Part shown: piece after piece, positions 9,881-57,652 of the stretch
Layout of the letters: the number at the start of each line of letters is the position of its first letter
How positions within the stretch are numbered: the stretch's first letter is position 1
Assembly: GCA_050733935.1 (NCBI GenBank)
Contig: JBOHUC010000024.1
Location: forward strand, 8,750 to 72,749
DNA from: Candidatus Eiseniibacteriota bacterium
GTDB taxonomy: Bacteria; Eisenbacteria; RBG-16-71-46; DASYSL01
Direction: 5' to 3'
DNA: 64,000 nucleotides
The notes under the pieces: model-generated
Databases searched by the model: none
Seen by the model: the letters and a program-made list of their open reading frames with translations, nothing else
Told to the model about the DNA's origin: nothing
Translations under genes and position numbers: made by a program

Positions 9881-10551
9881 GACTGGCCTCCTTCCCGGGC
9901 CCCGCTTCCTGCGGGCACGTCCTTCCGGCGCAACGTATCGAGATAGCGCGTCAGCATCGTTTCGCAGTCGGAAAAGGCCCCCGGCCCGCGCACGGCCTTG
10001 GCGAGCAGGATCGTGCCCTCGAGCATCGAGAGCAGGAATCCTCCGGCGACGCCGGGAGAGAAATCGTCTGCGAGCTCACCGTCCCGCTGACCGCGCGCCA
10101 GCGCGTCGGCAATGAGCTGTTTCAAGTCGTCGAAGCACGCCACCAGCTCGCGGCGAATGTCTTCGTGCACGTCCGTCGTCTCGGCGGCGAAGTTGCCGAG
10201 AAGACATCCACGCTTGCAGCCGCCGTCCGTCTGATACTGGATGGCCTGGCGGAAGAAGGCCTGGACCTGAGGGATCGCGTCTCCTGTCCCGGTGAAGACG
10301 CTGCGCGTGAGCTCCTCGCGAACGAACAACCGGTATCGGTACAGGAGCTCCCGTCCCAGGTCCTCCTTGCTCTTGAAGTAGAAGTAGAACGAACCCTTCG
10401 GCACCCCGCTCGCGTCGAGAATTTCCTGGAGGCCGGTGTTCTTGAACCCCTTCTGATGGATGAGCTCGGTGGCCGCAGCCAGGATTCGCGCTTTGGTCTC
10501 CTCACCCTTGCGTGTGGGGGCGACGCCGAGTTCGTTCATGCCGTCCATCAT
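9877..10551 (-). CDS. TetR/AcrR family transcriptional regulator
   Basis: N-terminal TetR HTH (KARILAAATELIHQKGFKNTGLQEILDASGVPKGSFYFYFKSKE). The stop overlaps the start of the ECF sigma gene (ATGA). Confidence 0.85.
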   Translation of the reverse strand: MMDGMNELGVAPTRKGEETKARILAAATELIHQKGFKNTGLQEILDASGVPKGSFYFYFKSKEDLGRELLYRYRLFVREELTRSVFTGTGDAIPQVQAFFRQAIQYQTDGGCKRGCLLGNFAAETTDVHEDIRRELVACFDDLKQLIADALARGQRDGELADDFSPGVAGGFLLSMLEGTILLAKAVRGPGAFSDCETMLTRYLDTLRRKDVPAGSGAREGGQS

Positions 10552-10752
10552 ATAGACGACCGGTCTATTACGAAGACAAGTCGGCGTAAAGCTCCGATCG
10601 GCCCTGGTTGCTGAGCAGCAAGTGCTCCCAGGCGAAGCGCGCCCCTGACCACGTTCGGCCGGGTGCGACCCCGACGCCTCGGATCTTGAAGTCTTATCTG
10701 GTCAATCACTTGCGTCCGTCGAGGAAAACCGAAAAGGCGAGCCCGAATCCCG

Positions 10753-14468: not shown

Positions 14469-14957
14469 TCAGCGCGCGGCGGGAACGGTTGCGAGAGTGG
14501 TGAGCGCTTCTCCGGCCACGCGGTAGGTCGTCCAGTCGTCGAGCGGCACCGCACCGAGCGATTTGTAGAACGCGATCGAGGGTTCGTTCCAGTCGAGCAC
14601 CGCCCACTCGAGACGTCCCCCGCCCCGCTCGAGCGCAAGAACGGCAAGCCGCGCGAGAAGCGCGCGCCCCACGCCCCGGCCCCGTGCTTCCGGAAGCACG
14701 AAGAGATCCTCGAGCCACAGGCCGGGCTTGCCGAGAAACGTCGAATACGTCGGGAAGAAAAGTGCGTACCCCACCGGCTGCTCTTCCAGGGACGCGACGA
14801 GCGCTTCCGCGCAGGGGCGCGGTCCGAAGAGCGCACGTTCGAGGTCCGCTTCGGTCGCGACCAGCGTGTGCTGGAGCTTTTCGTAGACCGAGAGCGCCTG
14901 AACGAGGCGATGGAGCAGGGGAACGTCGGCCGGCGTGGCCGCCGCGATGCGGATCAC
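14469..14957 (-). CDS. GNAT family N-acetyltransferase
   Basis: RGRGVGRALL motif A and a typical ~160 aa length. Confidence 0.8.
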   Translation of the reverse strand: MIRIAAATPADVPLLHRLVQALSVYEKLQHTLVATEADLERALFGPRPCAEALVASLEEQPVGYALFFPTYSTFLGKPGLWLEDLFVLPEARGRGVGRALLARLAVLALERGGGRLEWAVLDWNEPSIAFYKSLGAVPLDDWTTYRVAGEALTTLATVPAAR

Positions 14958-16923: not shown

Positions 16924-17047
16924 GGGGGTTCATTCCCTGCGGTGGAGGTGTAGGATGGGTTTCCCGGGGGTCGGCGCGCCGACCTCCGTGCGCGCGCCGG
17001 CCGCATCCTATCCAATGCACCTCCATGGTCTCAACCTCGGAGGCATC

Positions 17048-29493: not shown

Positions 29494-29976
29494 ATGAGCG
29501 AAGTCCGCATTTTCCTCCGTCACACGGTCGCCACGCTCGCCTACCGGGGCGGCAAGGCCACACGCGGCGCCACTTCTGAGTTCGGCAGCTTCAAGGTGGG
29601 GCCCACGACACGCACGCCGCGCGAGATCGTGGCGCACGTCGGCGATCTCCTCGAATGGGCTCTGACGATGGCGCAGGGTCAGGAGAAGTGGGTGCGCGCG
29701 ACGCCGGTCTCGTGGGAGGGCGAGGTCCAGCGCTTTCACCGCTGCCTGCAGGCGTTCGACGCCTACCTCGAGTCGGGCGAGCCTCTCAACGTGAGTGTCG
29801 AGCGGCTATTCCAGGGACCCATCGCCGACGCTCTCACGCACGTCGGGCAGGTCGCGATGCTCCGGCGTCTCGCCGAGGAGCCGATGAAGGGCGAGAACTA
29901 TGCGCGGGCACAGATCGAAAGCGGACGCGTCGGGCCGGATCAAGTCCCCGCCGAGCCGAAGAACGAATTCGACTGA
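29494..29976 (+). CDS. DinB superfamily protein
   Basis: His-Asp-His triad spacing typical of DinB_2 (EIVAHVGDLLEW ... DALTHVGQVAMLRR). Confidence 0.6.
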   Translation: MSEVRIFLRHTVATLAYRGGKATRGATSEFGSFKVGPTTRTPREIVAHVGDLLEWALTMAQGQEKWVRATPVSWEGEVQRFHRCLQAFDAYLESGEPLNVSVERLFQGPIADALTHVGQVAMLRRLAEEPMKGENYARAQIESGRVGPDQVPAEPKNEFD

Positions 29977-30016
29977 ACCTGGGGTGCGGCAGGTTGTCCG
30001 GCCGATGTGCCGCGAG

Positions 30017-30141
30017 ACTCGCCCGGGTAACTTGCCCCGGGGCAACGTTGACATAACGAACGATGAACTCGCTCTGGAGCGAATTCATCAACGGTGTTGA
30101 TCGCCGCCAGGAGCCCGTGAACTTGCCCCGGCGTGTTGAGG
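30017..30141. repeat. Two copies of the palindromic repeat AACTTGCCCCGGGGCAAGTT in a convergent intergenic region
   Basis: GTAACTTGCCCCGGGGCAACGTTGAC and GTGAACTTGCCCCGGCGTGTTGAG. The same palindrome occurs three times at 53505-53625. Confidence 0.6.
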
Positions 30142-30160
30142 GGAACACCGCCCGAGCCCC

Positions 30161-30727
30161 CTACCGACCGAACTTGTTCTCCATCTTCTGATTGAAGGCG
30201 GTCGACTGGCCGCGCGGGATGCTGAGCGAGCGGAACGACGCGCCGCCTGCGTGCTTCGCAAGCAGCACGATCTGTCCCACATGATTCCCGTAGTGCGTGA
30301 GCTGACGATGGATCGCTGCGATCACTGTGTGCGGCTCGCCCCGGATCGTGATCGTCCTCTGGAGATCGTCCCCCTTGAGCGGCTCGAGGGCGGTGAACAG
30401 CGAGTTCCAGCCCGCCTGCCAGCGGGCCATGAGCGCTTCGCGCGTGTCGGCTTCGCCCGGCTCGAACTCGGTGTCGCGGTTCCGGTCCGGCTTCTCGCCG
30501 TCGCTCGTCAGGAAGTCGGTCCAGCGCGACCGCAGGTTTCCCGCGATGTGCTTGACCACGACCGCGATGCTGTCTCCTTCCGGCGCGGGCACGTCGAAGA
30601 ACGTGGCGTCGTCCACCTGGTCGAGTGCCTTCTCCGCGAGCTTCTTGAGACCGCGGAACTCTTCGATAGCGTTCGCAAGCACGAGATCGCCGACAGTGCC
30701 CTGCGTCCCGGCCGGATTGCCGCTCAT
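30161..30727 (-). CDS. DUF1572 family protein (DinB/YfiT-like fold)
   Basis: IAVVVKHIAGNLRSRWTDFLTSDGEKP...TIRGEPHTVIAAIHRQLTHYGNHVGQIVLLAK. The start is the internal ATG, and the Arg-rich upstream ORF portion is rejected. Coordinates follow ORF-table arithmetic. Confidence 0.7.
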   Translation of the reverse strand: MSGNPAGTQGTVGDLVLANAIEEFRGLKKLAEKALDQVDDATFFDVPAPEGDSIAVVVKHIAGNLRSRWTDFLTSDGEKPDRNRDTEFEPGEADTREALMARWQAGWNSLFTALEPLKGDDLQRTITIRGEPHTVIAAIHRQLTHYGNHVGQIVLLAKHAGGASFRSLSIPRGQSTAFNQKMENKFGR

Positions 30728-31368
30728 GTGCCACCTCCCATGGGATGCTGCGGCCACGCCGCAAGCGGTCGCCCGATCGCCTCGCGCGCGCGCCGGGCCT
30801 GTTCGAGATGCCGCTCCTGGTGGACTGCGATCGCCGCGAACCATGCGCCGAGACGCACACGAATGAGCGGGGTCGCGGCCGATCCCACGCGCACGCGGGA
30901 CAGCGCGAGGCCGCGCGCGCGCTCGACACGCGCGAGTAGCTCTTCCTGAAGGATCAAGAACGACTGCACCACACCCTCGATCGTGAGATGCGACCGCGGG
31001 ACGAACGCCCGGGGCGTGCGCATGCGCTGCGTCGGGCGGCCCTTCACGCTCGCGAGCGAGCGGACGAACAGGCGGTCGAACCATCCGTAGTCGATCGGAT
31101 TTGCGACGCCGGGCGTGACGTTACCCACGCCGCCCGATCGCTCCCGTGTCTTCTCGATGCCCCGATCGAGCCGGGGCAGCATGAGCCCGCCCTGCACGTT
31201 CAAATGATCGAGGCACTGTCCGACGGACCACGAACCTGGCTCCGGCTCGCGGATGAACTCGGCGGGAGAGAGTCCGTCGACGAGCGCTTGCGCGCGCACC
31301 TGATCCCGGTGGTATGCGCGCGCGCATTCGTCGAGATCGAGCGGCAGCGCAGCCGCGGGTTTCTTCAC
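30724..31368 (-). CDS. DinB family protein
   Basis: C-terminal HQERHLEQ motif. The GTG start is inferred at 31368, and the stop overlaps the DUF1572 start (ATGA). Confidence 0.5.
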   Translation of the reverse strand: MKKPAAALPLDLDECARAYHRDQVRAQALVDGLSPAEFIREPEPGSWSVGQCLDHLNVQGGLMLPRLDRGIEKTRERSGGVGNVTPGVANPIDYGWFDRLFVRSLASVKGRPTQRMRTPRAFVPRSHLTIEGVVQSFLILQEELLARVERARGLALSRVRVGSAATPLIRVRLGAWFAAIAVHQERHLEQARRAREAIGRPLAAWPQHPMGGGT

Positions 31369-38221: not shown

Positions 38222-38378
38222 AAGGCAGACAGGCTCGAGTCGGCCACGCCCTGGCAGCGACACGCTCGCGTCCAACGAGTTAGGGACGAATCGTCTTCTG
38301 CAGACGCCCGAGACGCGCCGCAACTTCGCCGAACGAGGGACGCACGGCGTCGAGCGCTCGACGAATCGGCGGGTTAGA

Positions 38379-50779: not shown

Positions 50780-51649
50780 ATGGACCTGTCCCTGATCCTC
50801 GTCTACTACAAGGCCCGTGAACACCTGAGGGCCTGCCTGCCCTCCCTGCCCGCGGCGTGCGCGGGACTCTCGTACGAGGTGATCGTGGTCGACAACGCCT
50901 CGGCGGACGGTGTGGCGGCCGAAATGAGACGGGAATTCCCTCACGTCCGCTGGATCGAGAATTCCGAAAACGTGGGGTTCGCTCGCGGCGTGAACCGCGG
51001 GCTCGCAGTCGCGGGCGGCCGCGCCATCGCGCTCCTCAATCCGGACACGATCGTGGAGCCCGGAGCCTTCTCCACGCTCGTGCGTCATCTCGACCAGCAC
51101 CCGGCGACGGGCGCCGTCGGGCCCAAGATCCTCGACCCGGATGGCTCGATTCAGCTCTCCTGCCGGCGGTTTCCCACGCACTGGACGGGACTCTTCAACC
51201 GCTACTCGCTCCTCACCCGGCTCTTTCCGAACAACCCGTGGAGCCGCGCCTATCTCATGCTCGATTTCGATCACGCCTCGACACGGGCTGTCGACTGGAT
51301 CTCGGGCGCGTGCCTCGTGACCCGGCGCGACGTGGTCGAACGCGTCGGACCGATGGACGAGGCGTTCTTCCTCTTCAACGAGGACGTGGACTGGTGCCGC
51401 CGCATGCACGATGCGGGCTACGACGTCGTCTATCTTCCGGAAGCGCGCTGCATGCACGCGATCGGCGCGTCGAAGGGCGCGATTCCGCTGTGGCTCATCT
51501 GGCGGCGACACCAGGGCATGCGCCACTATTTCCGTAAGCACCACAAGGGACCGTGGCCGGTCATGCTGCTCACGGATCTCGGGATCCTCCTTCGCTGCGC
51601 CGCCCAGGTCGCGCTCAATCCCCTGCGCGCGCTCGGAGGTCCCGCTTGA
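50780..51649 (+). CDS. Glycosyltransferase family 2
   Basis: VDNASADG (DxD) and a GT-A fold N-terminal region. The ATG at 50780 is preferred over the TTG at 50765. Confidence 0.8.
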   Translation: MDLSLILVYYKAREHLRACLPSLPAACAGLSYEVIVVDNASADGVAAEMRREFPHVRWIENSENVGFARGVNRGLAVAGGRAIALLNPDTIVEPGAFSTLVRHLDQHPATGAVGPKILDPDGSIQLSCRRFPTHWTGLFNRYSLLTRLFPNNPWSRAYLMLDFDHASTRAVDWISGACLVTRRDVVERVGPMDEAFFLFNEDVDWCRRMHDAGYDVVYLPEARCMHAIGASKGAIPLWLIWRRHQGMRHYFRKHHKGPWPVMLLTDLGILLRCAAQVALNPLRALGGPA

Positions 51650-52701
51650 CGCCGGGCTGGCTCGGCGTGCTCGCCCTCACCGCCGCTGCGTTCGTGGTCG
51701 CGATTGCGTTCACGCCGGCCGTCATGCGGGCGGCGCAGCGTTTCGGCTTCGTCGATCATCCGGGCGAACGCAAGGTCCATCGCGAGCCGATGCCTACCGG
51801 CGGCGGTTTCGCAGTCGCGGGCGCGTTCTTTGCCGTCCTGTGGATCTCGACGTTGTTCCCGGGAGCCCCGCCGATGCGCGCGGTCATCGGGCTCACGGTC
51901 GTCGGCGTCCTCGCTCTCCTCCTCGGATATTTCGACGACCGCTTCCGGCTTCCGGCGTGGTTCAAGCTCATCGTCCAGGCGGGCTGCGGAGTCTTGCTGC
52001 ACCAGTTCGGCTTTGGCGTCGACAAGCTCTCGAACCCGTTCGCGGGCGATCGAGCGGCGATCGAGCTCCAGGGCCTCGGAATCCTGGTCGACGTCATCTG
52101 GGTGCTCGCGATCACGAACGCGATCAATCTGATCGACGGTCTCGACGGCCTGGCCACGGGCGTGGTCGCGATCGCGACGGGGGCGCTGGTCGCGGTCGCG
52201 ACCATCCATCAAGACGCCTCGGTGATCTGGGTGGGAGCGATCCTGGTCGGTGCGTGCCTCGGGTTCCTGCGCTACAACTTCCCGCCCGCGCGCATGTTCC
52301 TCGGCGACACGGGGAGCCAGTTCCTCGGCATGATGATGGCGGCGCTCGCGCTGCTCGAGAACAACAAGGGCACGGCCGCGATCACGCTCCTCCTTCCGAT
52401 CGTCGCGATGGGCCTGCCGCTCCTCGATTCAGGGCTCGCGTTCGTCCGGCGGCTCGGTCGGGGCGGCCGGATCTTCCGCGCCGACCAGGAGCACCTGCAC
52501 CACAGGCTCCTCCACCTCGGGCTCACGCAGCGCCAGGTCGTCACGCTCATGTACTACGCGTGCGCGTACCTCGGGATCACGGCCTACATGCTGTCGTTCC
52601 TGCCGCGGCGGGCGGTGCTGCTCGTCCTCGTCCTCCTCACCATGGGCCTCGTGCTCGCGCTCGAGACGCTCGAGTTCATCGATCGCCGATCCCGTCGCTA
52701 G
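51646..52701 (+). CDS. Glycosyltransferase family 4, undecaprenyl-phosphate sugar-phosphate transferase (WecA/MraY-like)
   Basis: VDHPGERKVH, NAINLIDGLDGLA and FLGDTGSQFLG motifs. The TTG start overlaps the GT2 stop (TTGA). Confidence 0.75.
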   Translation: MTPGWLGVLALTAAAFVVAIAFTPAVMRAAQRFGFVDHPGERKVHREPMPTGGGFAVAGAFFAVLWISTLFPGAPPMRAVIGLTVVGVLALLLGYFDDRFRLPAWFKLIVQAGCGVLLHQFGFGVDKLSNPFAGDRAAIELQGLGILVDVIWVLAITNAINLIDGLDGLATGVVAIATGALVAVATIHQDASVIWVGAILVGACLGFLRYNFPPARMFLGDTGSQFLGMMMAALALLENNKGTAAITLLLPIVAMGLPLLDSGLAFVRRLGRGGRIFRADQEHLHHRLLHLGLTQRQVVTLMYYACAYLGITAYMLSFLPRRAVLLVLVLLTMGLVLALETLEFIDRRSRR

Positions 52702-52715
52702 CTTTTGCTTTTGCG

Positions 52716-52755
52716 CGGTCGCGCGGAGCGTTCTTCGGTCGCGCGGGGCGTCTTT
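52716..52755. repeat. Two 20-bp tandem direct repeats (CGGTCGCGCGGRGCGTYTTT) plus a degenerate third
   Basis: Seen directly in a locally lower-GC intergenic stretch, 52702-53040. Confidence 0.5.
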
Positions 52756-53040
52756 GGTCGGGGCCCGGTGCGCGATCGCGCCGAACTTTTTTGGCGCGCT
52801 ATGAGAGATTTTTCTTGACGCTCTTTCAGCGTCGGAGCGGTTGTCGCTCCCGGGTCTCTCAAAGGACACGCGCGAGCGTGCTCAGGATCGCTCGACTCGC
52901 GAGATCCGGCGGAGGTCCGGCGCAGCGCTCATGAGGCTCTGAACGACGCTCGTTGCGCGGCTGTCCGGGCGTGTCCGCCGCTCGTGATAGAAATGAATCG
53001 AGTCCCCGCTCGAAGGTGCGCCCCCGGTGGAGTCGTTGCC

Positions 53041-54198
53041 ATGCGTGCCTACGCCCTGACTCACCTCAGCGATGAAGTCCTGCTTCGCAATCTGAACGAG
53101 CTCGTTGCGCGGGACCGCCTGACGACGACGGAGCTCCTCGCCTGCCTGGCCGAGGTCGATGCCCGCAGGCTCTACGTCCCCGCGGGCTACACGTCGATGC
53201 ACGCCTTTTGCGTCGACGGCCTTCACCTGTCCGATGACGCAGCCTTCAAGCGGATCCAGGCCGCGCGGGCGGCGCGGCAGTTTCCGGCCCTCTTCGGAGC
53301 GCTGGCCGAGGGGCGGCTTCACCTCACGGCCGTGCGCCTCCTCGCGCCCCATCTCACCGAGGAGAACGCGGACGAGCTGATTCGGGCCGCGTCGCACCGG
53401 CGTAAGGGCGAGATCGAAGAGTTCCTCGCCCGGCGTTTCCCCCTGCCCGAGGGGCAGTCGATGGTCCAGACGCTCCGCGCGCTTCCCTCGGTTCGGGCGT
53501 TACCGAAGGTGGAACTTGCCCCGGGGCAAGTTGCCGCTGCGGTGCGAGGTCTCCTGGGCGAGGTTGCCCCGGGGCAAGTTGAGTCTCGTGAGCCGCAGCC
53601 GGCCGGTGAACTTGCCCCGGGGCAAGTTGGAACGGCGGTCGGAGGGCCTGCCTCCGCCCCGACGACGGCTCCGGCGCGCTACCTGCTTCGGCTCGCCATT
53701 GGAAAGACCACCCACGACCGGCTGCGGTACGCGCAGGAGTTGCTCAGCCATTCGGTGCCCTCGGGGGACATCGAGGCCGTTCTGGATCGCGCGCTCGAGG
53801 CCCTCATTCGTCAGCTCGAGTCCCGAAAGTTCGCGGCCACGAAGGAGGTGAAGCCAAAGCGTCGTGCGAACACGAAGCCCACGACGTCGGACAAGAGCCT
53901 GGGGGCGGTACCCATGCGGCGGGAGTCGGCTCGTGACCGGTACGTCCCGGCACGCGTCAAGCGTGGGGTCTGGAAGCGCGATCAGGGTCGGTGCACGTTC
54001 GTGGGTGAGAGCGGACATCGCTGTGAGGCGCGAAGCTTCCTCGAATTCGATCACATTGAGCCGCTGGCCCGAGGCGGAAGCGCGACCCGGGAGGGAACGC
54101 GACTCCGATGCCGGGCTCACAATCAGTTTGAAGCCGAGCGAGTGTTCGGCACCGGGTTCATGGCCCACAAACGAGAGCAGGCTCGAGCGGGCACCTAG
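53041..54198 (+). CDS. HNH endonuclease with an N-terminal DUF222-like domain (REP13E12-type)
   Basis: C-terminal HNH motif (...WKRDQGRCTFVGESGHRCEARSFLEFDHIEPLARGGSATREGTRLRCRAHNQ). The N-terminus is DUF222-like. Three in-frame palindrome copies encode ELAPGQV repeats. Confidence 0.75.
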   Translation: MRAYALTHLSDEVLLRNLNELVARDRLTTTELLACLAEVDARRLYVPAGYTSMHAFCVDGLHLSDDAAFKRIQAARAARQFPALFGALAEGRLHLTAVRLLAPHLTEENADELIRAASHRRKGEIEEFLARRFPLPEGQSMVQTLRALPSVRALPKVELAPGQVAAAVRGLLGEVAPGQVESREPQPAGELAPGQVGTAVGGPASAPTTAPARYLLRLAIGKTTHDRLRYAQELLSHSVPSGDIEAVLDRALEALIRQLESRKFAATKEVKPKRRANTKPTTSDKSLGAVPMRRESARDRYVPARVKRGVWKRDQGRCTFVGESGHRCEARSFLEFDHIEPLARGGSATREGTRLRCRAHNQFEAERVFGTGFMAHKREQARAGT

Positions 54199-54259
54199 CA
54201 CGACGAGTACGACGAGGCGTGCCCGCACACCGGAGCGCGCGGAGCTTCCTCTGCTGCGG

Positions 54260-55090
54260 CTAGCGGAAGCGGCCCGGCCCCCCGCCTTGCGCGAACAGCG
54301 GCAGCTGCACCGAGGATCCCGTGTTCCACGCGGGGCACATCGGCTGGAATTCGCACCAGTTGCAGAGCGGAGTGATCCGCGGCGGAAAATCGTCCGCCTG
54401 GGCCGCGCGCTGGATGCGCGCGATGAGCCCGAGCACGTTGAGTTTCAACTCGCGCAACTGGTCCGGTGTGCGGATCGAGAAGAGCATCCGGTCGTGGGCC
54501 AGGTAGTGCCACACGAGCTTGATCGAGTGCACATCGGGCAGCTGGAGCGTGACGCCCAACTGATAGAGCGCGAGCTGGCGATCGCGGTCGATCTCGTTCT
54601 GCGACGGCAGGCGGCGCGAGGTCTTGTAGTCGTGGATCTCGTAGTTCCCGCCGCCCAGATCCACGAGCCGGTCCACATAGCCGGTCAGGTGGACGTCGTT
54701 CTCCGGATCGAGCGGATAGGTGACGAGCATTTCCGCGCCCAGCGTGCGGCCGCGGTTGAACGGGTCGTGGCGCCGATAGTAGAGCTCGAGGCACCGCTCG
54801 GCGATGCGGCGATAGCCCGCGACCGTCTCTCCCGCCCGCACGACGTGGACGGCGCCGGACCACTCCCGTCCCCAGGCCTCCCGAAAGTGATCGAGGATTT
54901 CGGCCTGCGTGGGCTTGTAGCCCATCTCGATCGACTGATAGAGGAATTCGAGCGTCTCGTGGACGCGCTTCCCGAGGAACGACTCGATGCTCTCCCGTGG
55001 CGGGACTTCGACCTGATCCACGTACCGGAGACGGTATTGGAGCGGGCAGTTCTCGTAGGCATTGAGTCGGGAGTTCGAAAACGTCGCCAT
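54260..55090 (-). CDS. PD-(D/E)XK nuclease family protein (Cas4/RecB-like with a Cys cluster)
   Basis: N-terminal Cys (YENCPLQY), the D...E-x-K motif (VDRLVDL ... YEIHDYKTS), the QxxxY motif (QLALYQL), and a C-terminal CNWCEFQPMC. Confidence 0.7.
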   Translation of the reverse strand: MATFSNSRLNAYENCPLQYRLRYVDQVEVPPRESIESFLGKRVHETLEFLYQSIEMGYKPTQAEILDHFREAWGREWSGAVHVVRAGETVAGYRRIAERCLELYYRRHDPFNRGRTLGAEMLVTYPLDPENDVHLTGYVDRLVDLGGGNYEIHDYKTSRRLPSQNEIDRDRQLALYQLGVTLQLPDVHSIKLVWHYLAHDRMLFSIRTPDQLRELKLNVLGLIARIQRAAQADDFPPRITPLCNWCEFQPMCPAWNTGSSVQLPLFAQGGGPGRFR

Positions 55091-57091: not shown

Positions 57092-57652
57092 TCACATCGT
57101 CGGCGGCGGCTCGACTCCCATCATCCTCAAGTAGAGAGCGAGCTGCGCCCGGTGGTGGATCTCGTGTTCCTGCGTACACGCGAGAATCCAGTGGAGCGTC
57201 GCCTTCTTCTCGGCTCCGCTCTGCGCCCGGTACGTGATCACACGATCGATCTCGAACGCGGGCTTGTCGAGCCACGCTTGCGTGCGCCGGTGCTCGACGT
57301 CGAGCAGCTCGAGGAGCGCGGCATGATCGCGCGCTTCCGGCACCGTGACCCAGCCCTGCTGCGGATCCGCATGCGGCACGACCCACTCCTCGTACGGTCC
57401 ACCCTCGAGCACGTGATGGATCCAGCCGCGCTCCGATTCCGCGATGTGGACGAGGAGCTGCTGGGCGGTGAGCATTGCGGGGCGGGGCTTGAAGTCGAAG
57501 CGATCGACCGGCAGCGCCTCGACCGCGAGCCTGAGGAACGGGCGGTACTGCGCGTCCCAGAGCGGAAAATAGGAACGGACCGTCCCGGCGGCCGAAGCGG
57601 CCGACAGACCGCGCGCGGTATCACGGATGCGGACGGCGATGGACGTCGCCAA
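57092..57652 (-). CDS. DinB family protein
   Basis: LLVHIAESERGW ... and the C-terminal QEHEIHHRAQL motif. Confidence 0.75.
   Translation of the reverse strand: MATSIAVRIRDTARGLSAASAAGTVRSYFPLWDAQYRPFLRLAVEALPVDRFDFKPRPAMLTAQQLLVHIAESERGWIHHVLEGGPYEEWVVPHADPQQGWVTVPEARDHAALLELLDVEHRRTQAWLDKPAFEIDRVITYRAQSGAEKKATLHWILACTQEHEIHHRAQLALYLRMMGVEPPPTM

Follow-up and report, generated by a model that had tools for sequence, protein, structure and literature searches.

We analyzed a 64,000-nucleotide (nt) stretch of contig JBOHUC010000024.1 from a Candidatus Eiseniibacteriota bacterium, called the window below, and focused on a gene for a predicted HNH-family nuclease, whose open reading frame (ORF; 53041–54198) contains three in-frame copies of the palindrome TTGCCCCGGGGCAA. 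These repeats are copies of a 22-nt DNA palindrome that is selected or homogenized at the nucleic-acid level, and the peptide ELAPGQV is what this palindrome spells in the frame used by the gene family. The element is a dispersed hairpin similar to repetitive extragenic palindromic (REP) sequences, and its main residence is the HNH gene family itself. From center to center, the three copies are exactly 48 nt, or 16 codons, apart (Table 1), and no match to the palindrome was found in 100 dinucleotide-preserving shuffles of the window. The coordinates and the shuffles agree with the original prediction that three copies lie in frame inside the ORF and leave the frame intact. One of its details changed: the gaps between the copies are 30 and 27 nt rather than 17–30 nt. 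Copies 1 and 3 encode ELAPGQV, and copy 2 encodes EVAPGQV. The three copies do not constitute a tandem repeat, as Tandem Repeats Finder detected no 48-nt repeat and the spacers show no mutual relationship. The palindrome was found in no other gene of the 64-kb window. Copies 1 and 3 are two of the six perfect palindromes with arms of ≥ 8 nt in the window; the other four (16–18 nt; 14683–14700, 16969–16984, 38348–38363, and 57291–57306) are not of the CAAC..GTTG type, and their number is about that in the flanks of other loci (0.09 per kb).

For comparison, we fetched 80 homologous loci from named genomes, which gave 81 genes together with that of the window. Most of the loci came from metagenome-assembled genomes (MAGs) of Eisenbacteria, and others from Limnocylindria, Dormiibacterota, Myxococcales, Omnitrophota, and Acidobacteriota. 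In 78 of the 81 genes, 1–5 in-frame palindromes with at least 9 of 11 pairs were found at the same place, in the linker of the encoded protein, and their 22-nt consensus was CAAC-NNGNN-CCGG-NNCNN-GTTG. Similarly, most of the 120 closest proteins had 1–4 motifs in the linker ([QE]LAPGQV, QHAPGHV, QLVPGRV, QLAPGPV, ELALGRV, and ELAPAQV). Perfect palindromes with arms of ≥ 8 nt numbered 89 in 84 kb of genes and 84 in 971 kb of flanks, and were thus twelvefold denser in the genes; the great majority of the 89 were of the family type and lay at offsets of ∼420–720 nt, which corresponds to the linker. The sequences vary among homologues yet stay palindromic (CAACTTGCCCCGGGGCAAGTTG, CAACATGCCCCGGGGCATGTTG, CAACTCGCCCCGGGGCGAGTTG, and CAACTGGCCCCGGGGCCAGTTG; core variants ..GCGCCGGCGC.., ..GTCCCGGGAC.., ..GTTCCGGAAC.., and ..GCCGCGCGGC..), and the copy number and the spacing (12 to 228 nt) vary as well. 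Among individual linkers, that of locus L045 contains a perfect 42-nt palindrome (1607–1648), and that of L055 contains five copies with a 63-nt period (10466–10739).

Because the position and frame are the same in 78 of the 81 genes, and because the palindromes also occur in a distant subfamily and in the closest homologue of the window gene (L201), we regard them as an old and integral feature of the family. In L201, copies 1 and 3 are 100% conserved, and copy 2 is kept in the same degraded form. One option of the original prediction was that a REP-like element or a miniature inverted-repeat transposable element (MITE) had colonized the gene, and this option was not borne out, given the common position and frame in homologues from several phyla. 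The comparison with homologues that had been suggested for recognizing the linker as an insertion likewise showed the palindromes at one shared position, and not a recent insertion.

The stems of the palindromes covary. Bases on the two arms change together (TT/AA, AT/AT, TC/GA, and TG/CA; GCC/GGC, GCG/CGC, and GTC/GAC), and it is this covariation that generates the peptide variants QLAPGQV, QHAPGHV, QLVPGRV, and QLAPGPV. Pair 6–17 was TA in 64 instances, CG in 39, GC in 31, and AT in 4, with 3 unpaired; pair 5–18 was TA in 91, AT in 30, and CG in 10; pair 9–14 was CG in 82, GC in 30, and TA in 19; and pair 10–13 was CG in 124, GC in 11, and TA in 4, where all instances had been preselected for at least 9 of 11 pairs, a choice that inflates the paired fractions, not the diversity of pair types. 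Because pairing had been the selection criterion for these instances, we also ran the test on a set picked solely by the peptide pattern x[LH]xPxxV and scored only the four pairs that the pattern does not fix. In this second test, 273 of the 392 free cells paired, compared with 171.5 ± 7.4 (maximum, 198) in 5,000 permutations of the partners.

Codon usage in the motif also followed the pairing. Valine was encoded by GTT in 96 of 131 cases, compared with 9% in the rest of the genes, and for glutamine at codon 1, CAA was used 79 times, with no CAG among the listed codons, compared with 19% in the rest of the genes. Like GTT and CAA, the codons CGA (Arg), CCA (Pro), and CAT (His), all rare in these GC-rich genes, were used where pairing needs them, and the third base of the leucine codon tracked the second base of codon 6 (CTT-CAA, CTC-CGA, and CTG-CCA). 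Among 149 representatives with < 50% mutual identity, the residue pairs were L..R (36), H..H (36), L..Q (27), L..P (23), and L(S)..T (13), and the combinations that break pairing were rare (L..H once and H..Q three times).

The palindrome is also retained where the usual peptide is not encoded. The distant homologue L089 reads its linker palindrome in a different frame, as STCPGAS, and has two more copies, one overlapping the stop codon and the other located 280 nt upstream of the ATG. In L017, the stop codon is followed after 2 nt by a copy identical to the internal one, and L052 has three out-of-frame copies at the 3′ end. The three palindromes do not differ between the window and L201 (100% identity), whereas the spacers between them are only 63–73% identical, and the same pattern of conserved palindromes and diverged spacers was found in the pairs L016/L020 and L005/L007. 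Furthermore, the 14-nt core was identical in 39% of the pairs of copies within a gene, compared with 3.3% of the pairs between genes, and in two copies each, L016 and L020 differ from one another by an identical symmetric change of several bases. Based on these two observations, we infer that the copies within a gene are homogenized.

Copies of the palindrome were also found outside the genes. In the window, three solo copies (A–C; Table 1) form a cluster at 30029–30138, 23 kb from the HNH gene, in the intergenic region 29977–30160 between the convergent ORFs 29494–29976 (+) and 30161–31084 (−), the latter of which encodes a DUF1572/DinB protein. With the core at 30032–30045 as its fourth copy in the window, the palindrome is indeed dispersed, as had been predicted. 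The presence of a pseudogene or a second gene copy at this cluster was rejected, since tblastn with 120 family proteins matched nothing there. In L061, a solo tandem array of five copies (1–170), with a period of 31 nt that is not divisible by three, lies 7.6 kb from the HNH gene and consists of the same imperfect variant, with the same mismatch, as the first linker copy of that gene. In both contigs that contain a solo cluster and the gene (the window and L061), a stem variant is common to the two, compared with an identical core in only 3.3% of the pairs between genes.

A metagenome scan for the exact 20-mer returned at least 120 contigs, and the counts that follow are among the matches listed. 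A family gene encloses the match in 48 of these 120 contigs and has it at both edges in 2 (L089 and L157); the other 70 carry solo copies, with no family gene detected on the contig by tblastn and a profile search. Sixty-five of the 70 solo copies lie outside ORFs supported by the GC content at third codon positions, and the codon-position GC contrast was 0.12 around the solo copies vs. 0.28–0.35 in their flanks. Many closely follow stop codons, frequently in the space between convergent genes, and 31 have 1–3 further palindromes of other stem variants within 300 nt. Their flanks are mutually unrelated, and no larger common unit was found. The GC content of the contigs with the 20-mer ranges from 47 to 74%, and those with solo copies carry approximately one further copy per 35 kb. 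Overall, 42% of the sampled 20-mer occurrences are in or at a family gene, which fills only a very small part of any genome.

A further suggestion of the original prediction, that the dispersed palindrome comes from the HNH family, stands in part: the element is one of nucleic acid and extragenic copies exist, with the family as their putative source. It had been proposed that this suggestion would fail if homologues from other genomes carried the same peptides without the DNA palindrome elsewhere in the genome. Homologues do carry the same peptides, but the palindrome is kept at synonymous sites and solo copies exist, so the outcome neither refutes nor confirms it.

Two side observations concern the surroundings of these copies. 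Solo or 3′ palindromes at L139, L109/L128, L172, L186, L190, L194, and L017 are directly followed by a small inverted repeat, GTGAAAnnnTTTCAC, which resembles parS half-sites in the opposite order. Additionally, palindrome tandem arrays with periods of 63 and ∼96 nt lie in long non-family open frames at L099 (719–930) and L198 (2170–2385), respectively, where the element may have entered the repeat region of other proteins.

Table 1. Features of the HNH gene unit and the solo palindrome cluster (window coordinates).
Feature	Position	Strand	Remarks
Conserved 5′ region of the gene unit	52807–53040	+	Similarity to L201 begins exactly at 52807
Predicted HNH-family nuclease gene, 385 amino acids	53041–54198	+	ORF; homologues; AlphaFold2 profile; Pfam/NCBIfam
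Palindrome copy 1, GAACTTGCCCCGGGGCAAGTTG	53512–53533	+	Perfect 20-nt palindrome at 53513–53532; encodes ELAPGQV
Palindrome copy 2, GAGGTTGCCCCGGGGCAAGTTG	53560–53581	+	Perfect 14-nt core at 53564–53577, outer left arm degraded; encodes EVAPGQV
Palindrome copy 3, GAACTTGCCCCGGGGCAAGTTG	53608–53629	+	Perfect 20-nt palindrome at 53609–53628; encodes ELAPGQV
Solo copy A, AACTTGCCCCGGGGCAACGT	30029–30048		Core at 30032–30045; 18 nt equal to the reverse strand of gene copy 2
Solo copy B, GATGAACTCGCTCTGGAGCGAATTCATC	30062–30089		Other stem variant (CTCGCT/AGCGAG), as in the linkers of L021, L059, and L077
Solo copy C, GAACTTGCCCCGGCGTGTTG	30119–30138		Left arm as in gene copies 1 and 3; right arm degraded

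The gene product matches an “HNH endonuclease” from a Candidatus Eiseniibacteriota MAG at 100% identity. In the AlphaFold2 model, it consists of an N-terminal helical domain (residues 1–132), with a predicted local distance difference test score (pLDDT) of > 95; a linker (∼135–210; pLDDT ∼40) that is predicted to be disordered and holds all three repeats; a middle helical pair (222–267); a second short disordered stretch; and the HNH domain (∼300–385). The repeats had been placed between a DUF222 and an HNH part, and the interdomain linker agrees with this, but the middle helical domain separates that linker from the HNH domain. The designation of the gene as DUF222-HNH is weakly supported: no match of the window protein to Pfam DUF222 (PF02720) was found at E ≤ 1, and its match to Pfam HNH scored 13.7 bits, below the cut-off of 21.4. 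Among 50 relatives, 16 matched Pfam HNH weakly and 3 matched DUF222 at E ∼1e-3 (best, 1.2e-3), which is below any curated threshold; the similarity to the mycobacterial REP13E12 family is thus a weak resemblance, and any relationship to DUF222 would be remote. Seven residues are invariant in the 50 sequences (D337, H338, H360, N361, C318, C328, and C357), and the first four are of the catalytic type. The best fold and sequence matches of the protein, although non-significant, were the HNH enzymes EcoKMcrA, Cap5, and Gme HNH, and a sequence search of the PDB returned nothing significant. The protein is accordingly a putative HNH-family nuclease. At 50% identity, a profile search counted 7,971 clusters of the family with E ≤ 1e-30, a number that rises to 18,380 at E ≤ 1e-10.

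Other features of the family members were noted in the same searches. Eight of the 50 aligned relatives (e.g., L037, L042, L013, and L017) have a C-terminal extension that matches Pfam RuvA_C, which the window copy lacks, and this extension is sometimes preceded by another in-frame palindrome (IEHAPAHV). RuvA_C is the RuvB-binding domain of the Holliday-junction protein RuvA, and its presence in some members hints at a link between the family and four-way or cruciform DNA. The weak fold matches of the N-terminal domain include the ParB/Noc DNA-binding domains (E > 3, not significant). The HNH protein was unmatched in a PADLOC scan for defense systems.

The gene is preceded by a conserved leader of ∼220–250 nt (the window and L001–L080; alignment of 53 leaders), the conservation of which emerged only after anchoring on the start codon and a TTGAC box. 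A single-sequence nhmmer search with the upstream region gave almost no matches, and Rfam gave no match at E ≤ 1 in 52500–54500 and none at the gathering score across the window. The leader of the window gene holds the box GATTTTTCTTGACG (52808–52820, with TTGACG at 52815–52820), the family form of which is GATTyCnnTTGAC(A/G). A nearly invariant TGnTAnnAA box lies ∼60 nt upstream of the ATG (GTGATAGAAAT at 52984–52994 in the window), and the leader ends in a C-rich CCGCCCCCG..GGAG segment just before the ATG. The mechanical ORF list starts the gene at GTG 52984, which falls within the TGnTAnnAA box; the homologues all begin at the position of ATG 53041 (M-R-x-Y...).

Genomes contain multiple paralogues of the gene, each copy with its own conserved upstream region, and in pairs of paralogues the similarity extends from ∼230–300 nt upstream of the ATG through the gene to its end, starting at the TTGAC box (215–255 nt upstream of the start). 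Similarity between the units of the window and L201 (78% identity) is confined to 52807–54185, and different genes flank the two. There were no conserved neighbors: the flanking GT4 and PD-(D/E)XK genes of the window adjoin none of the 80 other loci. Duplications were not seen at the ends of the gene unit. These results suggest that the HNH gene behaves like a selfish single-gene cassette. A phage origin was rejected because the 20-mer is absent from 2.9 million viral contigs, and a plasmid origin because the PLSDB plasmids hold no real homologue of the protein.

As for the immediate surroundings in the window, a PD-(D/E)XK nuclease gene (54260–55090, −; PDDEXK_1, E = 2.6e-33; Cas4 models, 3e-10) is convergent with the HNH gene at a distance of 61 nt, and its adjacency looks accidental, since it is next to none of the 80 other family loci. 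Just before the HNH unit, a terminator-like hairpin with a T-run (CGGTGCGCGATCGCGCCG AACTTTTTTG) lies at 52766–52792, after the upstream glycosyltransferase gene (51553–52701).

We propose, with a confidence that stops a little short of an even chance, that the hairpin or cruciform formed by the palindrome is a cis-acting substrate of the encoded HNH nuclease, and that nicking or recombination there yields the solo clusters, the changes in the linker, and the concerted evolution of the copies. In this scheme, the palindromes would extrude as DNA hairpins or cruciforms, and the encoded nuclease would bind and nick them, with the flexible tether encoded by the palindromes joining its N-terminal DNA-binding-like domain to the HNH domain. 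Nicking or recombination at these sites would copy palindromes elsewhere and so give rise to the solo clusters; it would also expand or contract the array in the linker and homogenize the copies within a gene. The activity of the sites may additionally help the gene cassette to duplicate. A bolder version, which we consider possible but doubtful, is that the HNH family supplies the enzyme for a REP-like class not described before (CAAC-N14-GTTG), with its substrate within its own reading frame. The gene would then serve as enzyme, master copy, and palindrome source at once, and cutting or recombination at its sites would drive both its own duplication and the variation in linker length. A search of the full-text literature returned no paper with the peptide motif and none linking HNH genes to REP-like repeats.

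Several points weigh against this proposal, in addition to the preselection of the paired instances described above. It is the co-location of the nuclease and the palindrome that suggests the action of one on the other. The sharp ends of the similarity between paralogues may be the limit of selective constraint and not the ends of a mobile unit. Palindromes do not generally bound the gene units; only L017, L089/L157, and L185 show such an arrangement, and we therefore rejected the palindromes as general boundaries. Single genes can hold different stem variants (L020 and L068), which argues against sequence-specific recognition of the stem and leaves the structure and CAAC/GTTG as the recognizable features. 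Solo copies are rare near the genes, as the ∼1 Mb of flanks from gene-bearing genomes holds just two solo clusters, and therefore the gene does not obviously disperse copies in those genomes. Finally, the 70 contigs with solo copies (251 kb, individually short) are without a family gene. We consider that the structural and evolutionary claims are well supported, and we offer the enzymatic link as a hypothesis.

An action at the RNA level is another explanation, which we consider unlikely. The palindromes would be attenuator or pause hairpins, through which a toxic nuclease stays scarce except under tightly coupled translation, or hairpins of the 3′ end or of transcript stability, and the solo copies would be stabilizers or terminators of the REP type. 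Such a role is consistent with the strong fold of the region, which forms as DNA or RNA (RNA, −86.9 kcal/mol; z = −4.3), with the positions of the solo copies, mostly just downstream of stop codons and often between convergent genes, where REPs and terminators accumulate, and with the copy that closely follows the stop codon in L017. However, the non-Watson–Crick cells in pairs 3–10 were G.T in 12 cases and A.C in 12 cases, so that wobble pairs are tolerated no better than A.C, which favors DNA. Pair 10–13 covaries by non-synonymous double changes (Pro-Gly to Ala-Arg or Ser-Arg) and would leave a 2-nt loop, which an RNA hairpin cannot close; two-base loops closed by 5′-C.G-3′ are reported for DNA hairpins but are not known for RNA. 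Moreover, an RNA stem-loop needs no perfect dyad symmetry up to the center, no U-tract follows the copies, a terminator scan detected none of them, and the identical 20-mers across unrelated loci and across contigs of differing GC content are left unexplained. Of these features, the wobble counts and the covariation of pair 10–13 favor an element that acts at the DNA level rather than at the RNA level.

Somewhat less probable again, in our view, is that the palindromes are functionless and perpetuate themselves, with the linker tolerating hairpin-prone DNA, and insertion, slippage, template switching, and gene conversion keeping the arms symmetric. The free variation in copy number and spacing would be explained in this way, as would a partial 15-nt duplication beside copy 1 in L201, and the concerted changes within genes (L016 vs. 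L020) fit conversion better than stepwise compensation. The center pair 11–12 is mismatched in 22% of the copies (CCAG, 25; CTGG, 6), and these mismatches are as expected from CpG decay without strong correction. In contrast, self-perpetuation alone does not readily account for palindromes that are kept in 78 of 81 genes over deep divergence and in ∼8,000 clusters at 50% identity, that are 100% conserved while the neighboring linker bases diverge, and that maintain strongly disfavored codons. In addition, the other disordered linkers and genes in the ∼1 Mb of flanks have not gained palindromes.

We consider it very improbable that [QE]LAPGQV is a short linear motif that binds a partner protein from a flexible linker, with the palindrome being incidental. 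The motif is widespread at the protein level and lies in a disordered linker, a typical site of linear motifs. However, the peptide varies widely (QHAPGHV, QLVPGRV, QLSPGTV, QLAARPV, and PLDSNPV), and it does so exactly as the pairing dictates, with the pairing-breaking combinations almost absent beside the frequent L..R, H..H, L..Q, and L..P. The synonymous positions are constrained, and copies in another frame or outside ORFs retain the palindrome and lose the peptide. This reading is therefore largely refuted.

A recent colonization of the window gene by a REP- or MITE-like mobile repeat is more improbable still. Solo copies with the same core do occur in the window and in metagenomes, and Rickettsia palindromic elements (RPEs) show that the in-frame colonization of genes can happen (PMC10969869). 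The homologue comparison contradicts it: nearly all homologues share the position and frame, L201, whose genomic context differs, has the same three copies, the palindrome is absent from all other genes of the window, and the 22-nt unit has neither terminal repeats nor target duplications. A degenerate or miniature array of clustered regularly interspaced short palindromic repeats (CRISPR), to which three ∼22-nt repeats with an exact 48-nt period beside a gene matching Cas4 models (E = 3e-10) might point, was rejected as next to impossible, because the repeats lie in frame within a conserved ORF, the “spacers” are homologous coding sequence that is 63–73% conserved in L201, the spacing in homologues varies from 12 to 228 nt, and the PD-(D/E)XK neighbor, which matches the general PDDEXK_1 family, is found at none of the 80 other loci.

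The tight and ancient link between the HNH gene and a covarying DNA hairpin gives a concrete candidate substrate for a large enzyme family (∼8,000 clusters at 50% identity) that is common in soil bacteria. A nucleic-acid structure that dictates a conserved “protein motif” is also a caution for the annotation of motifs and domains, as QLAPGQV, QHAPGHV, and the like are not peptide signals. As a structure-guided nicking enzyme, the nuclease could be of practical interest, should it turn out to be specific for hairpins. To our knowledge, the RAYT tyrosine transposases are the only enzyme class so far tied to bacterial palindromic repeats, and the feature described here suggests a new partnership of a palindromic repeat and a nuclease. 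Elements of the IS200/IS605 type consist of a single gene and lack terminal inverted repeats; the cis sites recognized by the element's own enzyme are DNA hairpins. They differ from the present case in that their hairpins are subterminal and act with TnpA (Y1), whereas here the hairpins are internal and coding and the gene encodes a predicted HNH nuclease; defined element ends, as in such elements, were not found for the gene unit.

The closest resemblance is to REPs, or their paired form (REPINs), and RAYTs (PMC3116915, PMC3337134), with which the element has in common a short, GC-rich palindrome (∼20–40 nt in REPs, 22 nt here), whose outer tetranucleotide is conserved (here CAAC/GTTG) and whose stem varies and covaries (here pairs 5–10). 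The intergenic dispersal at gene ends, often in clusters of mixed variants, and the single enzyme gene with copies at its own locus are similar as well. In contrast, the enzyme of REPs is a Y1 HUH transposase and their canonical tetranucleotide is GTAG, and the repeats flank the RAYT gene rather than lying inside the reading frame of the enzyme. RAYTs are typically single-copy (PMC5581495), whereas the HNH gene is multi-copy. REPs number tens to hundreds of copies per genome, and solo copies are scarce in the genomes sampled here. The repeat-carrying gene is of the HNH family and not of the Y1 HUH type, although no scan of the window or the loci was aimed at RAYT genes.

RPEs resemble the element in that a palindromic repeat lies in frame in genes and adds a tolerated peptide segment (PMC10969869). 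However, RPEs are ∼100–150 bp long and newly inserted into many unrelated genes of one genus, whereas the present palindrome is 22 nt long, ancient, and found at one conserved position in one family across several phyla. The general features of RPEs and intragenic MITEs, namely a length of 100–400 bp, many unrelated host genes, and presence or absence between relatives, were not observed, and neither terminal inverted repeats around a larger unit nor duplications at the ends of the gene unit were found, as would be expected of MITEs. PARCELs (PMC2996958) are also variable tandem coding repeats with dyad symmetry in DNA and are spread by horizontal transfer and intragenomic shuffling, but the domain that they encode, found in membrane or surface proteins, is amphipathic and 25 residues long, and the present element encodes 7 residues, without an evident structural role, in the disordered linker of a predicted nuclease. 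The REP13E12 DUF222-HNH genes (PMC10589994) are similar as ∼1.4-kb one-gene units with an N-terminal helical part and a C-terminal HNH part and with several copies per genome, whereas Pfam DUF222 gave no score for the window protein and weak scores for only 3 of the 50 relatives. The element lacks defining features of each of the REP/RAYT, RPE, PARCEL, and REP13E12/DUF222-HNH systems. The scheme that we propose would be most like the hairpin–enzyme pairs of REP/RAYT or IS200/IS605, but with an HNH enzyme and with the sites within the enzyme's own reading frame.

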